Source of the DNA: Octopus vulgaris | Taxonomy: Eukaryota | Assembly: GCA_951406725.2 (NCBI GenBank) | Contig: OX597824.1 | Coordinates: forward strand, 50,282,001-50,346,000 | DNA: 64,000 bases | Reading direction: 5' to 3' | Shown: in pieces, positions 1 to 59,840 of the stretch | Position numbering within the stretch: position 1 is the first letter of the stretch | How the letters are laid out: every line of letters starts with the position of its first letter | Notes under the pieces: model-generated | The model's input: the letters and a program-made list of their open reading frames with translations, nothing else | Databases searched by the model: none | What the model was told of the DNA's origin: nothing | Made by a program: the position numbers and the translations under genes

Positions 1-1338
1 TGAAGTTTATTGCCCGGGGTGTCGGATATGCAAAGATTTAGTTGCTATTTGACACCCCGAATGCGAGCCAGCCCCTGGAGGGCAATAAAATTTTGTTTCC
101 TCCCACCTATTGATGGAGGAAACTGATGCGGGCTTGGGTTTGCAGGTTCCCACCGAATTTAAAACCAGGCTGGATAGAGGACACTATCCGCCGGGGTTTG
201 GGTGGTAGCGGCGCCAAGCTCCTTAATGTTAAATTATTACCAGTGGCTGATTGGTTTGGGTCAAAAGTTACTTTGACCCTGTGGACCCAATCAGGAAAGG
301 AGTTAGTCTTTCCGGACTTTTAAACTGTGGCTGGGAGTAGGTGCCCGGTGATTCTTAAGGGTCGCCCTCCAAGTGTCGCCGGTTTCTGGAACCTGGCCAT
401 TTAAAAAAGAACTGCCCCAGAACCAAAGTTGGTTGAGACCTCTGTAGAAGAGGGAACGGAGGCAGTTGAGGAGGTGGAGGACTCCTCAAAGAAAGGCCGC
501 AAGAGGAAGAAGGTGAGCAACAATGGGTGCTCAACGAAGGATCCGAGGGAGGAGAGGCGGATCTCCCAGTCACAGAGGAAACCCACCCTTCTTAGTTAAG
601 AGAAAAAAGAGGAAGAAAAGTGAAACGGGACATTATCGGCAGTTGGTAACACAATACCGAAATGTCCCGGAACTTCGTCGGTGGGAATCGTGCAACCGAC
701 AGGTGAAGAGCAATCGTCGGTGGGAATTGTGCCACCGACGGTGGAAGTGACTACCTCATCCTTTGAAGAAGAAGAATTACTTGTCTTCTTCTACAGGGGC
801 AGAGAGGTGGAAGTGTTGGAGAAGCACCACGAGGGAGCAATTATGACCTGCACAGGGGGATCCCGAATGGCCTCCGTAGATAGCCGTGGAGGTCATAACG
901 TTGCCCGTGTTGCAAAGGCTGAAGAAACTCAATGAAGAATATCGCTTGTAGCCGGGCGGCCCCAACACGTCACCCGCTTTGTGCTTGAGTGAGGCATGGG
1001 AAATGGCGGGGTATGGGGTCACAAGCGATACTGAAGACGACTATGGGTAAGCGGTTGGAAAGCCTCGATATTGTGAACTGATAAGAGGTTTGAAAACTCA
1101 TTCTGTTTTTAACCAAGGTACGGGCCATAGTGCCTCATTTTTGTGTTTTAATGAACAATTATGAACAATTGTAAGAGGTATGATAAATAAGAGAATAATG
1201 TTTTCGGGAAACAACAATCGGCTGGCGTTGTCTATCATTTTTCTCTTTTCATCTCATATAACATTATGTCTGTGTCCAGCTCGCAGCTTCCTTCTTTCTC
1301 TATGTAAGGCCATCATAGCCAATTTAATAAAATAAAAA
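1..1338 (+). mobile_element. ORF1-only non-LTR retroelement, copy 1 (5' end lies outside the window; ORF degraded)
   Basis: Homologous to 54325-56565: RAWVCRFPP...LWTQS vs KAWICGLPP...LWTQS gives 37/55 aa identical. Degenerate knuckle KCRRFLEPGHLKKNCP at ~371-418. 3' UTR ends AATAAAATAAAAA and joins AGCTTGCTTAC of a SINE at 1339. Confidence 0.85.
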
Positions 1339-1722
1339 AGCTTGCTTACTAATCACATGATTCCTGGTTCAGTCCCATTGTGTGGCACCTTGAGCAAGTG
1401 TCTTCTACTATAGCCTGAGGCTGACCAAAGCCTTGTGAGTGGATTTGGTAGACGGAAACTGAAAGAAGCCTGACGTGTATATATATATATATGTGTGTGT
1501 GTGTGTATGTGTGTCTATGGTTATCCCCTCCCACCTCCGCTTTGACAACTGCTGTTGGTGTGTTTATATCCCCGTAACCTAGCGGTTCTACAAAGAGATC
1601 GATAGAATAAATACCAGGCTCTAAAAAACAAAAAAAGAACTGGGGGCGATTCACTCGACTAAAATTCTTCAAGGCAGTGCCCCAACATGGCCGCAGTTTA
1701 ATGACTGAAGCAAATAAAAGAT
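1339..1722 (+). mobile_element. tRNA-derived SINE family A, 3' part downstream of the ORF1-element insertion
   Basis: Contains B-box-like GGTTCAGTCCC, ACCTTGAGCAAGTGTCTTC and tail GGCAGTGCCCCAACATGGCCGCAG...GAAGCAAATAAAAGA. Matches copies at 56566, 59440 and 38130. Confidence 0.85.
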
Positions 1723-3247: not shown

Positions 3248-3550
3248 TGAAATTATGGGCCGAAATATATATGAAGAGTGGTAATAATATTATCTGTTAT
3301 ACCTATTAAACTATTACTTTCCATCTTTTCAGGAAATTTACTAGAATTAAAGTATGTAATGGTATATTCTAAGGATTATGGTGCTATACGCAGTAATGAA
3401 TCGTAGGGGATGCAATTGGAGGCAATGAAAAGTATTGAATATAATCTGTGCATGGAATATCTAGGAAAGGAAACACACCGACGTTATGTATGACTAGAGA
3501 TCAGTGGGTGTATTAATTGGTAGTATTATTAGGGCAGTGGATAGATAATT

Positions 3551-3967
3551 CCTATTTCTTTACTGCCCACAAGGGGCTAAACACAGAGGAGACAAACAAG
3601 GACAGACAAACGGATTAAGTCGATTATATCTACCCCAGTGCGTAACTGGTACTTAATTTATCGACCCCGAAAGGATGAAAGGCAAAGTCGACCTCGGCGG
3701 AATTTGAACTCGGAACGTAGCGGTAGACGAAATACCTATTTCTTTACTACCCACAAGGGGCTAAACACAGAGGAGACAAACAAGGACAGACAAACGGATT
3801 AAGTCGATTATATCTACCCCAGTGCGTAACTGGTACTTAATTTATCGACCCCGAAAGGATGAAAGGCAAAGTCGATCTCAGCGGAATTTGAACTCAGAAC
3901 GTAACGGCAGACGAAATACGGCTACGCATTTCGCCCAGCGTGTTAACGTTTCTGCCAGCTCGCTTCC
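3551..3967 (-). mobile_element. SINE family B head-to-tail dimer (184-bp duplicated unit)
   Basis: 3551-3734 is nearly identical to 3735-3918. Only the right-hand copy continues into the head (GCGAGCTGGCAGAAACG). Confidence 0.9.
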
Positions 3968-4702
3968 CTTTCACGCAGTTTCTCTCAACTCAATTTCATT
4001 CACAACACGAGGGTTACCTCAAGGCTATAGAAAATGACATTTGATCAAGAGGATACGCTGTGGGATCGAACCCAGATCACGTGGTTGTGAAGAGAACAAA
4101 AACATCTGCAATTACAACTAAACAAGGCGAACAAGAACAGCGTGACAGCAGCCGTGACAACAACAGCAACAGCGATAACACCACCACCACCACCACCACC
4201 AACAATTACTACTGGCATAATGGATTTTTTTTTATCGACATACAAGTGTCTACTTTTGTTAGGACAGAATATGTTCGGTTGAATGACTTCAAATAGACTG
4301 TTGCAATTGATTTCGTCGATTTTGGAGTGACGAATATCAACACTGACTCTGCAAGGTTGTGAACGTAACACTGCGTAGATGGTCATTCAGTGTCCCAAAG
4401 CCATCAAGGGATTTAAGTATTTTGTGTATGGAAGTTTTTCTGTTAATATGCTAATAGTGTGCCACGGTACAGTTGATAAGAGTCCTTTTCAGCAGAATAG
4501 ACTGGAACAACATGAAATGATTCTTGCTCAAGGATACTAAGTGCCAACCGGCCAAGGAATCGAACCGGTGACCTAATGGATGGACTCAGTCAACCACAAG
4601 GTCACGCAACATCACAGTATGTTGACGAACGAATTTATGTACTGTAATTCGTTTTGGTCAGCGCTCCAGAATGTTTTAATAAGTAGACAACTGAAATAGA
4701 AG
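3968..4702 (+). repeat. Local duplication, copy A (copy B at 30597-31966)
   Basis: Collinear near-identity from CTTTCACGCAGTTTCT to AAGTAGACAACTGAAATAGAAG. Confidence 0.9.
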
Positions 4703-5189
4703 TTCAAATCTTAGCAAGATAAACTTTGTTTATTTTCCCTGAATATATATAAATAAAATAAGGAAGGGTCGACTTGGGACAATTTTTCTCTTCTTTCCTA
4801 TTTTTTTTCACACTCCCAGAATCTGCTTCACTGCATTCTGAAAGCTACTGTGATAGTGCCGTGACCCCTACAGTTTTGCCTCGAAGACTAGTGTCACAAA
4901 AATCGTTACAAGAAGAGAGGGTTACAAGAAGTGACAGAATAATGTCTTTTATTGGTTGTGTTTATGGCTGTGTAGTTAATTCTTTTGGTTCGCGTTGGAT
5001 CGTGGGAACTGACTGTTGTGCGTATAAATTAGGTTGTGCTCGTGCTTGTTATAGTAATGTCTTTAACAATGATGATGGTGGTCATTGGAATGATAGTGCT
5101 GATAGTACTGGGTTTTCGTTGCTCGAAAGCATTTCCACCTGCTAGTTTTGTTTTTGTTTGTATTGGTATTGATTTTCTTTTTCTTTTCT

Positions 5190-6230
5190 TTACATTGGTA
5201 ACATTTTACTATTTATGCTCCTCGCCGTCACATTCGACACATCACATATCTGAGTGGTCCCAAGTGAGGATAGGTGTATCTTGGGTGGCGGGGGTGATTA
5301 TCTTTTTATATTTTGTTCTTGTTCAGAGTTTTTCAGTTGCCGTTGTTGGCGACATGGTAGCTCTTGAGGGTGGTATTTCTTTTGTTGTTTTTGTTGCTGT
5401 TGTTACCACTCTTGGCGTTGTAGTGTTGTTACTGTAGGTGCTGCTTCTTGTCTTGTAGCTGGTGTTGCAGTCACTGTTGCTAAAGTTGCAAGCCATTGTT
5501 CTAGCTGCTGAAGTTGTAATTTGTTTGTGTAGTTGTTGCTGGTTTTGAATCTGTGTTTTGTCATTGGGGAGGTTTTCTTTTGGCTGTAATTTTATTATTG
5601 TTGTTGGAGGGAAATAGCTTTGACGTGATAAGTTTTTCGGTAGTCGTTGAATCAATGTCCTCTATTTTCCACTCCCACCTGCCGCTCTCGTGGGATCTCT
5701 ATTATCCCCAATTTCATCCAAGCTTTCTTTTCGAAATCTTCTTTCTAGTAACGTACTAAAGTCTTCCAAAACCACATATTTAACCAAAAGCCTAGTTCTT
5801 GAGGTATGTTTAAGTTTTCATTTGGATCATTCTCCGCCCTAGGAAACTGGCATCAATAAGAAATCTACAGTTATATCTTGGACGGTGGAATGCGTCTGGG
5901 CTAGGATTTCCAAGTGTAAAAATAACTCGGACATATCCGAAATTATGGGCATATCATGCAGAATTAATGACTTGTCATACGTTTCTTAAAAAGAATTCAA
6001 CTTTTTCTGAAAGTATACACTCTAATTTGCTTCTGTCCATTGATAAGCATCTACACAGAATTATTTTCCTTTCTGTTTGGTCTAAAATCGTGTTGTGGTA
6101 TATTGAGCACAACCTTTCTCTTTTCTAGTCTCTTGGTATATTTCTCTCCTTCTTCGAAATATTCATGCCTTATTACCTAGGGATATGAGATCGAAAACGT
6201 TAGTGTTCTTGGCAAGAGAAATATTTTAGC
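5190..6230 (-). pseudogene. Highly degraded gag/ORF1-like relic, distantly related to the 54943 ORF
   Basis: Manual minus-strand translation across stops and frameshifts gives VVLNIPQ..DQTERKIILCRCLSMDRSKL, FLLMP.FLGRRMIQMK, and a degenerate knuckle CVECDGEEHK at ~5205-5240. Confidence 0.5.
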
Positions 6231-17540: not shown

Positions 17541-17962
17541 GCATGCATACATATATGCATACATACATACCCCTATCTACACGCATGCACACACATATAC
17601 ACCCACAAATTGTTTAGTCATTTCCCTTGATTCCATGTCTTGTGTTCTTCATCCTCTCACCGTTTTCTTGTTTTCTGCCAACCTCCATCAACTGATCATC
17701 AGTTATTCTGCTTTCTTATTCCCGTCTTCATCGACATATTTCCTTACTTACTGCGTCTGTAGGAAGGGTTAGTGACCATGTTTCTTACACGCCTTCCTAG
17801 ACTGGTGAGTTCATGGCGTTAATGTTTCTCTTGATCAGTTGTAAATCACATATGTGTATGTGTGTCAGCACAATCATACATGTGTACATACATACATACA
17901 TATATCTATGTATATGTATGTATAAATATATATAAATACATATATGAATATATATGCACATA

Positions 17963-20100
<2,138 letters not shown>

Positions 20101-54287: not shown

Positions 54288-54324
54288 GGCGCAGAAGTGG
54301 CTGTGTGATAAGTAGCTTGCTTAC
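54288..54324 (+). mobile_element. SINE family A 5' head up to the insertion site (includes left TSD 54310-54324)
   Basis: GGCGCAGAAGTGGCTGTGTGATAAGTAGCTTGCTTAC, continuing at 56581. Confidence 0.9.
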
Positions 54325-54348
54325 AGGTTGCTTCTGCGCATGTGCGAG

Positions 54349-54385
54349 TCAGTGTTGTGTTTGGCACTGAAGCGGTGAAGACGTG
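54349..54385 (+). promoter_or_regulatory. Putative internal Pol II promoter (Inr TCAGT plus DPE-like AGACGTG)
   Basis: TCAGT at 54349-54353 and AGACG at +29 relative to the A. A TGCGCATGTGC motif lies just upstream. Confidence 0.45.
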
Positions 54386-54942
54386 CTTTTGAAGCCGTCT
54401 TGAATTGAACATTTTTGAAGCCCCATTGTAAGGTAAGATTCTGTTTTCTGGGTCCAGTGGGAGTTTTTGTTGAAAATTGTTTTTTACAGGCAGGAAGTCC
54501 TACTGGATTCAGAATTCTGATTCTGCCGACATCGGGCAAATATATTTTTCTCGCTGAATTGTGAGAATTTTTTGGGGGCGTATTCGTCTTCGATAATTGA
54601 GTGAATATCTTTCTCACCTAATTATGAGAATTGTATTGTGCTGTGAAGAACTTTAAGAATTGTGAGAACTGTTATATAGGGAGTGTTTTGCCTCCGAAGT
54701 TTGAACAATTTTTACCAATTTTACACCAATTTTTGTGGAAGTTGTGTTCCAGTTGCGGCGTTCCGGGTTCAATTTAGGCCGGGAGTACCGAATGGCCAGA
54801 AGGTTTTTGCTGTGTTATTGACTTTCTTTTTAACTTTATTTGACTTTCTCCTTTTTTGTTCATTGTGACTTTCTTCTGATTTCTTTTTCTTCTCGCTTTT
54901 TAAGTTTTATTTTGAATATATTTAAAAAAAGAAAAAAAAAAC

Positions 54943-56220
54943 ATGGCAATGAAAAATGACAAAGTTTTGGAATGGGAGATCATACCGCCTAAAAAGTGGT
55001 TAAAAGACCGTGAAGATAGGACGGTGGTGTTGAGAACCTACTCCAAGGCACTCGACACCATCGCCCTGTTCGAAAAGACGGCAATTGAAAAGGAGTTGGC
55101 AGAGTATTTGCCAACAATTAAATTCATTTCCAGAGGTGTCAAATATGCAACGGTGTGGTTGCTATTTGACACCCCTGAAGAGGCTTGCAAATTTGCTAGT
55201 AAACCACTGGAGGGTAAGGACATTTTATTCCTGTCCACGTACCAAAAAAAGAGACTGACGAAAGCTTGGATTTGTGGGCTGCCACCCGGGATAGAACCCG
55301 AGTGGATAGAGGAGACTATCCGCCGGGGTCTGGGTAGCAGCGAAACTAAGCTCCTTAATGTAAAAGTTCTTCCTGCGGCTGCTTGGGTTGGGTCAAAAGC
55401 AATTTTGACCCTTTGGACCCAATCAGCCAATCTGGTTCTTCCAGATTTTTTGAAAATGGCCGGGTGCAGGTACCCGGTGATGCTTGAGGGTCGCCCCCCC
55501 TAAGTGTCATCGGTGCTTGGAGTCCGGCCATATAAAGAAGAACTGTCCCCGGGAACAAAATAGGATCCCGGAACAGTTAAGTGAAACCCCTGTAGAAGAG
55601 GGAATGATAACGGCCGAGGAAGCAGAGGACTCCTCAAACAGAGGCCGAAAGAGGAAGGTGAGCAACAATGGGTGCTCACCAAAGGATACTAGGGATGAGG
55701 AGGGAAAGGCGAATCTTCCGGCCACGGAGGAACGCACCCTCCCTCAGTTGAAAAGAAAAAAAAGAAAAAGAGGAAGAGAAACGGGACATTACCGGCTGTC
55801 GGTGACATAGCACCGGAATGTCCCGGAACTACGTCGGTTGGGGTTGTGCCACCAACAGGAGAATAAATACCGTTGGCGGGAACTGTGCCGCCAACGAAAG
55901 AATTGAATATCCCGCACCCGAGCAAAAACGAGGTATTGATCCTCTTCTATAGAGGCGGAGAGATTGAAAAGGTGATGGAAAAGCACCACAAGGGAGCACC
56001 TTTAGCCTTCACACAGGACCCCGAATGGCCTCCGCAGGTAGCTGTGGAGGCCGTGGCGTTCGACGTGACACTTGGGCTGAAGGAGCTCAATGAGGATTAT
56101 AGCTTGGTCCCGGGCGACGCTAACTCGGAACTCGATTACGTTCTGAGGGAGGCGTGGTGGATGGTGGAGGGCGCGGGCACAAGTTATTTCGAGGACGAGT
56201 CAAATTGTGATACGACTTGA
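54943..56220 (+). pseudogene. gag/ORF1-like nucleic-acid-binding protein (~425 codons) with CX2CX4HX4C knuckle; two frame breaks and one stop
   Basis: Starts AAACATGG; contains KCHRCLESGHIKKNC and basic GRKRK/KRKKRKR motifs. Breaks at the C7 run (55494-55500), near the A run (~55756-55763) and TAA 55864. The C-terminal LFYRG.E.E.EKHH.GA block is conserved in copy 1. Confidence 0.85.
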
Positions 56221-56565
56221 GGGGCCCCGACCTAGAGCTGGCGCATTCCTAAGGGAAGTGTAAGCCAGGTCTGGGAGGAGGGGCTTTGTGTATTGTATTT
56301 ATATATGTAATTATTGAACTATGTTGTTATTAGTAATGGACTGCTAAGTCCAAAAATTGAAAAAATTGTAAGAGGTTTAATACCTTGTTTTGTGTTTGTT
56401 TTTAAAAGAACAATGTTTTAGAGAAGCAGAAGTCGGCGGGCGCTTTTTGTCTTCTCCCATCCCCATCATCTTTCTTTCATTATCATTCACTTCATTAATG
56501 TCCTCGTCCAGCCCGCAAAGCTAACTTACTCTATGTACTGCCTTTATGGCAAATGTTATGAAATA

Positions 56566-56905
56566 AAGTAGCTTGCTTACCAACCACATGGTTTCGGGTT
56601 GAGTCCCGCTGCGTGGCACCTTGGGCAAGTGTCTTCTACTCTAGCCTCGGGTTGACCAAAGCCTTGTGAGTAGATTTGGTAGACGGAAACTGAAAGAAGC
56701 CCGTCGTATATACGTATATGTATATATACGTGTTTGTGTGTCGATTGACAACCGATGCTGGTGTGTTTACGTCTCCGTAGCTTAGCGGTTCGGCAAAAGA
56801 CACCGATAGAATAAGTACGAGGCTTACAAAGAATAAGTCCTGGGGTCGATTTGTTCGACGAAAAGCTGTGCTCCAGCACAACCGCAGTCAAATGATTGAA
56901 ACAAG
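56566..56905 (+). mobile_element. SINE family A 3' part (begins with the right TSD)
   Basis: CAACCACATGGTTTCGGGTTGAGTCCC...GTGCTCCAGCAC..GCAGTCAAATGATTGAAAC. Confidence 0.9.
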
Positions 56906-56944
56906 GAAGGAGTATATATGTATATATATATATATATATATATT

Positions 56945-59439: not shown

Positions 59440-59836
59440 TTCTTTTATTCTTTTACTTCAGTCATTTCACTGCGGCCATACTGGAGCACCGCCTTTTAGT
59501 TAAGCAAATCGACCCCAGGACTTATTCATTGTAAGCCTAGTACTTATTCTATAAGTCTATTTTGCCGAACTGCTATGTTACGGAGAGGTAAACACACCGA
59601 AATCGGTTGTCAAGCGATGTCGAGGAGACAAACACAGACACACAATCACACTCACACACATACATATAAACATATATATATACGACGTGTTCTTTCAGTT
59701 TCCGTCCAGCAAATTTACTCACAAGGCTTTGGTCGGCCCGAGGCTATAGTAGAAGACACGTGCCCAAGATGTCACACAGTGGGACTGAACCCGGAACCAT
59801 GTGGTTGGTAAGCAAGCTAATTATCACACAGCCACT

Positions 59837-59840
<4 letters not shown>
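59440..59840 (-). mobile_element. SINE family A, full-length and uninterrupted (empty-site control)
   Basis: GGAGTGGCTGTGTGATAATTAGCTTGCTTACCAACCACATGG...GGCGGTGCTCCAGTATGGCCGCAG...(GAATAAAA) tail. Confidence 0.9.

Follow-up and report, generated by a model that had tools for sequence, protein, structure and literature searches.

Introduction

Several LINEs of the Tx1 clade are described as target-specific, among them Xenopus Tx1 in Tx1D, Keno in U2, and Kibi and Koshi in microsatellites; a Tx1-type family is counted as target-specific when more than 20% of its copies are flanked by one repeat (PMC4494074). The same paper describes the crocodilian element Tx1-Mar, which inserts in Mariner-N4, and SINEU-3, a non-autonomous passenger. 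Here we describe elements of Octopus vulgaris that were encountered in a 64-kb window (the whole stretch of DNA that was analysed) at C11:50282001-50346000 of the 2.8-Gb genome, where 2 ORF1-only retrotransposons, referred to below as copy 1 and copy 2 and, with their relatives, as half-elements, are inserted in SINEs. With Tx1-type elements they share an APE-RT element that uses one defined position within multicopy DNA, in many cases another transposon, and with SINEU-3 a non-autonomous passenger at the same target, with tandems that sandwich the TSD (PMC4494074). However, the octopus target is a SINE head, which is not among the targets that we found described there, and the octopus passengers encode a conserved ORF1, whereas SINEU is described there as non-coding.

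Three other systems are similar in different respects. HAL1 (half-L1) of mammals is a non-autonomous L1-group derivative that encodes ORF1p only and had multiple independent origins (PMC5753468); the octopus half-elements differ from it in their RRM-RRM-CCHC ORF1, sequence-specific target and tandem arrays. TRE5-A.2 of Dictyostelium kept ORF1, lost ORF2 by deletion and is moved in trans via its 3' terminus, with targeting tied to Pol III units; yet TFIIIC/TFIIIB place TRE5-A about 50 bp upstream of the target, in contrast to a fixed base inside the SINE head, and A.2 arose from A.1 by deletion and is still close to it, whereas the octopus half-element ORF1 is only 25% identical to its partner's (PMC3159450). 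HeT-A of Drosophila, with TART and TAHRE, is likewise ORF1-only, dependent on a partner RT and found in mixed head-to-tail arrays, but it joins chromosome ends without endonuclease, whereas the octopus copies are dispersed, with TSDs, in SINEs (PMC4700185). By these comparisons, the octopus system appears to work like HAL1, TRE5-A.2 or HeT-A with Tx1-type targeting added. Each part is already known; what we did not find described is a SINE-head target together with several selected ORF1-only lineages and with junctions that follow SINE turnover. Among titles and abstract openings we found no report of SINE-targeting Tx1/L1 elements or of octopus ORF1-only elements, and Repbase or Dfam may already hold the families. 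The published O. vulgaris repeat annotation lists L1-Tx1 families; the words "target" and "nested" are absent from its text, and its supplements may hold these families (PMC13282606).

Results and discussion

Two ORF1-only elements at one SINE position

Copy 1 enters the window on the + strand as an ORF1 remnant with stops and frameshifts (1..1050; 2 RRM-like domains, a CCHC knuckle and a disordered basic tail), followed, with no ORF2 between, by a 285-nt 3' UTR (1051..1335) that closes with a small hairpin of the GCC/GGC type and an A-rich terminus, AATAAA. Its 3' TSD (1336..1349) and the 3' part of its host SINE (1350..1720; B-box-like motif, microsatellite and SINE 3' end) complete this side, all on the + strand. 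The first-pass annotation had advised reading the kilobase upstream of the window, and that sequence contains both the SINE head, which lies about 805 nt upstream of position 1 (locus L031, ~4195-4230), and the TSD: after the head come a 9-bp core that repeats positions 1339-1347 exactly and a 5' UTR of about 610 nt. The element begins about 770 nt upstream of the window and its ATG lies about 160 nt upstream, for a total length of 2107 bp.

Copy 2 is also on the + strand and is a young ORF1-only element (54325..56566) with a 5' UTR to 54942, a frameshifted ORF1 at 54943-56220 and a 3' UTR. It is preceded by the 5' head of its host SINE with the A-box-like motif (54288..54310) and a 14-bp TSD (54311..54324), and is followed by the second TSD (56567..56580) and the 3' part of the SINE (56581..56913). 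An uninterrupted SINE on the - strand (59676..59839) served as the empty-target control.

The comparisons of the 2 copies made in the first-pass annotation were reproduced. The junctions at 1336-1349 and 56567-56580 match in SINE site and orientation; recounting gave exactly 15 differences in 132 nt of the downstream SINE halves (from 1339 and 56570, respectively) and exactly 37 identities in 55 aa of the ORF block RAWVC...WTQS; and pairwise alignment joined the 3' UTRs in patches only. Also as stated there, copy 1 has no ORF2, since only 285 bp separate its ORF1 stop from the target and tblastn with ORF2 gave no match; the same search found no ORF2 remnants in any of 9 half-elements or elsewhere in the 64-kb window. 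Copies 1 and 2 are 71% identical across 1076 alignment columns, and the alignment ends where the SINE ends (1713 and ~56903, respectively). Outside the SINE, including the sequence upstream of the copy 1 SINE head, there was no flank similarity between them. A repeat search of the whole 64-kb window was dominated by microsatellites.

The target site and its host SINE

The SINE is very abundant, and the insertion point lies about 23 nt in from its start, between A-box-like and B-box-like motifs, which we assigned by eye from the consensus of the boxes, and is flanked by TSDs of about 12-16 bp. Rfam returned no tRNA in the SINE-bearing loci, only microsatellite noise, and ARAGORN found 0 tRNA genes over the window. 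Linked diagnostic sites split the host SINEs into subfamilies A, B and C; the tail of copy 1 is type A, and most of its relatives are in type C SINEs.

Our first searches contained SINE sequence and were hence biased, so sites were counted from insert-only queries without SINE, on top-ranked copies. In the young family, 35 of 40 copies met the SINE tail at one and the same base, 2 adjoined a TSD plus a sibling element, and 3 adjoined neither. In the old family, that of copy 1, 37 of 40 copies were examined (3 were not fetched), and 31 lay directly at the SINE tail; of the exceptions, 2 had part of the TSD and then another element, 1 was displaced within a SINE head and 3 had neither. With 6 SINE copies within the 64-kb window, such counts at one SINE position make chance negligible as an explanation. 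Together with the autonomous family described below (26 of 30), both families stand above the 20% of copies used for Tx1-type elements. The young and old families, at least 2 further ORF1-only lineages and the 5.5-kb autonomous family use one common SINE position.

The elements have the hallmarks of target-primed retrotransposons: TSDs, 5' truncation, an A-rich 3' end and no terminal repeats. In place of a long poly(A), the 3' end has a short AATAAAG terminus. Off-target copies (L086, L104, L150 and L254) end at their own 3' terminus without SINE, and the off-target ends, AAAGT in the young family and AAAGA in the old, equal the first TSD bases of the SINE subfamily that each family prefers.

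The ORF1 protein

In a naturally open ORF1 copy (P0001), the sole Pfam domain hit was a weak zf-CCHC match. Its predicted structure was confident over residues ~10-210 and disordered after them, and structure comparison of the predicted fold matched residues 14-103 (Z 9.2, rmsd 2.7, 83 aligned) and residues 101-182 (Z 8.3, rmsd 2.5, 75 aligned) each to an RRM-like domain. Judged by this predicted fold, the half-element protein is a LINE ORF1 with 2 RRM-like domains and a CCHC knuckle, and the label "gag" that it had been given earlier, in the sense of an LTR-type gag, does not apply. We also rejected a gag-only LTR derivative, as the ends of the elements are TSDs and non-repeating SINE halves and the listed fold matches were mostly RRM domains. 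Mammalian L1 ORF1 differs in architecture from RRM-RRM-CCHC. Membership in HAL1 itself was discarded too: the elements are HAL1-like in working and not mammalian L1-derived, the named ORF1 homologues being from Octopus and the sole Pfam hit being zf-CCHC.

With one open young copy as reference, dN/dS in the RRM and knuckle region was 0.26 for copy 1 and 0.11-0.36 across 11 diverged copies; 3 close copies gave 0.52-0.56 in this region, and the C-terminal part of ORF1 gave 0.39-0.68. The half-element ORF1 is under purifying selection. Values of 0.11-0.36 therefore argue that ORF1 is required during propagation, a requirement that would fit an ORF1 protein acting on its own RNA.

A protein search of the genome gave 150 scored copies of 83-100% identity, the best of 11,254 first-look candidates (a number of candidates, not a copy number), and 25 of these best 150 had a stop-free ORF1 match in an open frame of at least 416 aa. 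The named ORF1 homologues were Octopus proteins, annotated as "uncharacterized" gene models, including a protein of Octopus sinensis 74% identical to the half-element ORF1.

A candidate autonomous partner element

In one tandem array (L146), the upstream neighbour codes for the C-terminus of an ORF2 and terminates at the same TSD, which led us to a candidate partner. A search with that neighbour gave at least 40 scored copies of 98-100% identity; among 30 copies viewed, 26 adjoined the SINE tail, 3 were followed by a TSD and a sibling (a half-element in 2 and another autonomous copy in 1), and 1 was off-target (L254, at a bare AAGTAGCTT motif in non-SINE sequence, with a TSD of about 16 bp). 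Six copies fetched in full were each about 5.5 kb, lay behind a SINE head and carried ORF1 and ORF2; both frames were unbroken in none of the 6. ORF2 contains Exo_endo_phos, RVT_1 and zf-RVT domains; among solved structures human L1 ORF2p matches it best (E 5.6e-67), with R2 at 1e-20. By these domains and solved relatives the partner is an element of the L1/Tx1 group, taken here without division into Tx1 and L1; the homologues listed were unnamed or hypothetical and the Atlas names generic, with no named Tx1 reference among them.

The last 39 nt of the partner are 82% identical to the half-elements, including the small hairpin and the ATGAAATAAAG terminus. The partner ORF1 is homologous to the half-element ORF1 (E 9e-23, 25% identity), and in a quick, weakly supported tree the half-element ORF1 was on a long branch and not sister to the partner's. 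From this low identity and placement it follows that the partner family identified here need not be the ancestor of the half-elements. The partner is a plausible mover of the young half-elements. With copies 98-99% identical, it is too recent a family to have mobilized copy 1, and an older partner able to do so was not found among the copies examined.

A further 1.46-kb ORF1-only lineage (L266, 2375-3830) occupies the same SINE site. Its ORF1 is 38% identical to the partner's ORF1 vs 29% to those of copies 1 and 2, and by this comparison the lineage is probably of independent origin.

Separate histories of inserts and host SINEs

We consider it very probable that copies 1 and 2 arose by separate insertion events, one from an old and the other from a young subfamily of a non-autonomous, ORF1-only retrotransposon of the L1/Tx1 group that would be mobilized in trans. 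The first-pass annotation had proposed independent insertions at one target, and had suggested that trees of inserts and of SINE halves be compared for congruence. The comparison came out incongruent. On a tree of 39 young inserts, which was poorly resolved (6 of 36 branches starred), the SINE label (A or B) changed 11 times vs 12.6 for shuffled labels, and 120-130 of 500 shuffles reached as few changes. After omission of 3 inserts with large indels, the mean distance among the remaining 36 of 39 young inserts was 4.6% vs 11.9% for their SINE tails (n=36; Mantel p=0.07). Nearest neighbours among the young inserts were typically 1-3% apart and their tails mostly 7-15%, with one exceptional pair with a closer tail (L146, 1.5%), and the nearest insert neighbour was in the same SINE type for 17 of 36. 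Autonomous copies (n=25) behaved similarly, with inserts at 0.43% vs tails at 7.4%, the tails being 15 of type B, 9 of type A and 1 unclear. In the old family, tail divergence exceeded insert divergence in 14 of 14 copies tested, copy 1 itself having 5.0% in the insert vs 8.8% in the tail. In the 3 families, then, tail divergence was 2-17 times that of the inserts. Decay of CpG sites might exaggerate the distances between SINEs, yet it would not account for linked subfamily sites. The host SINEs predate the elements inserted in them, and their relationships are independent of insert ancestry.

Two other histories would place these elements at the same site. One ancestral insertion could have been spread by segmental duplication, and the copies do share site and orientation on one contig, 54 kb apart. 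Nevertheless, the inserts are about 71% identical vs 89% for the tails, much closer relatives of each copy are found on other chromosomes, and the copies have no common flank past the SINE; as nothing upstream of the copy 1 head resembles the copy 2 flank, segmental duplication is excluded for this pair as nearly as such a history can be. Elsewhere, we noted local duplication rather than retrotransposition, with near-identical 5' flanks, at L041-L046 (C31, C39) and at L040, L047 and L050 (C28). The other history, raised in the first-pass annotation as its alternative, is a composite of SINE head, ORF1 and SINE tail that moves as one piece via the LINE partner of the SINE and the SINE 3' end. 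It draws on the 19 5'-truncated copies that have a SINE tail and no head (4 of 39 young and 15 of 31 on-target old; 2 more young copies were ambiguous), on 3 copies (L124, L148 and L172) that stand beside (TA)n, a frequent setting of the SINE's own insertions, and on an enrichment of the beta 5' type in type-B SINEs.

Against the composite, tails do not track inserts, the tails of head-less young copies are not common to their nearest insert relatives, several lineages are stacked within one SINE in the tandem arrays, and the 4 off-target copies named above end at their own terminus without SINE. No convincing TSD surrounded the head-less composites at the 13 of 20 truncated or head-less loci where a SINE end was found (it was missing in 7), a weak test, since the SINE nested in L156 itself has at most a ~3-bp duplication. 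Other 5'-truncated copies lie directly behind a SINE head (L134, L234, L180 and L193), and in L134 and L234 private bases of the local SINE are repeated on both sides, giving TSDs of 12-16 bp. Head loss is commoner in the old family than in the young, as expected if heads were deleted after insertion, and the frequent internal deletions favour that cause as well. As the main route, the composite is therefore contradicted by the incongruence and we regard it as improbable; occasional read-through composites may nonetheless be present among the head-less truncated copies.

Tandem arrays and 5' junctions

At 8 loci (L135, L140, L141, L146, L152, L154, L182/183 and L184), elements of different lineages form arrays of the order head, element, TSD, element, tail, with the members head-to-tail inside single SINEs and the TSD alone between them. 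Each insertion regenerates the target, and TSD-spaced arrays follow from this. In full-length copies, positions 10-14 of the 5' TSD disagreed with the tail in 10 of 28 pairs (our count), and the mismatches were non-random: 5 share GGTTA and 4 have a type-B junction over a type-A tail. Possibly, the element RNA begins a few bases inside the donor's TSD, so that full-length copies would overwrite positions 10-14 of the inner 5' TSD on integration with a lineage signature. Because such a junction would be RNA-borne, full-length copies can look composite, and can mimic a composite element in annotation.

The otherwise diverged 5' UTRs conserve a splice-donor-like G|GTAAG or GTAGG (54430-54440 in the window), with pyrimidine tracts downstream; its distance from the TSD is ~95-130 nt in most half-element lineages and ~70 nt in the partner. 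Among the matches listed for contigs of 4 of 24 sequencing runs there was no joint at the donor-like site, a result with no bearing on expression or splicing. The 5' ends (54325-54350 in the window, and relatives) also carry GCGCATG(C/T)GC and CTTCCGG motifs, which resemble NRF1 and ETS promoter sites; the motifs suggest internal Pol II promoters that may have been swapped among lineages.

Proposed mechanism and choice of target

From the common 3' terminus and the common target we infer trans-mobilization by the partner ORF2p. The half-element would be transcribed from its own 5' UTR, and its translated ORF1p would bind its own RNA. The partner ORF2p would recognize the common ~40-nt 3' terminus, nick AAG(T/A)AGCTTG and reverse-transcribe in place, that is, by target-primed reverse transcription in trans, the RNA end AAAG(T/A) matching the first TSD bases. 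The site could instead be chosen through RNA-DNA homology or through chromatin, with Pol III factors on the SINE acting as they do for TRE5-A, and not by a sequence-specific endonuclease. The target-like end bases do track the SINE subfamily (AAAGA old, AAAGT young) and the site is between the A-box-like and B-box-like motifs, but the position is fixed to the nucleotide and the autonomous off-target copy lies at its bare motif outside any SINE, so that we consider selection by homology or chromatin unlikely, though less so than either of the histories weighed above. It would alter target choice only and leaves the independence of the insertions as it is.

If the separate-insertion reading holds, the list of sites used by sequence-specific L1/Tx1-group elements gains a SINE head. 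ORF1-only LINEs would then have radiated a second time, outside mammals and with ORF1 kept under selection, and this would make testable the standing question of why long non-autonomous LINE RNAs keep ORF1 in cis and borrow ORF2. The young partner, with its nearly identical copies, would be a natural source of an APE endonuclease with a short defined target. Such elements are prone to mis-annotation as genes ("uncharacterized" gene models) or as SINE or unknown repeats.

A broader reading, which taken jointly we hold tentatively and at rather less than an even chance, is that the SINE is a renewable landing pad for a site-specific LINE on which several long-lived ORF1-only lineages ride. RNA ends would then be refreshed from the resident SINE, so that the terminal bases track subfamily turnover (AAGA to AAGT); insertion would split the promoter boxes and should disable that SINE copy; and the half-element strategy, repeated at other targets, would amount to a major unrecognized class of octopus TE.

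Other lineages and features of the window

Distant relatives of ORF1, with 25-31% identity to the half-element, are repeated every ~1.8-2 kb at C7:100.09-100.11 Mb, C4:70.04-70.05 Mb, C11:53.68 Mb, C1:64.25 Mb and C5:1.15 Mb (loci L207, L209, L213 and L215), and appear to form tandem arrays of ORF1-only elements at another target. Remnants of ORF2 were seen beside L207, L212 and L229. In L216-L229 a further ORF1 lineage terminates in ...CCTATAATAAA and is followed by a recurring GAGA(A/T)A... sequence, which is probably a third target repeat. At 20 of 28 loci of the distant ORF1 lineages, Rfam gave no known RNA target. Locus L187 contains a minisatellite (4050-5900) with a 54-bp unit that produces long open frames. 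In the window, positions 17835-19932 hold a fragmented RT-coding LINE of another clade, without a match to L1/Tx1-type ORF2 at E 1e-3, and positions 3500-3960 hold a tandem duplicate of a second SINE-like family, with more copies near 2230-2380 and 27116.
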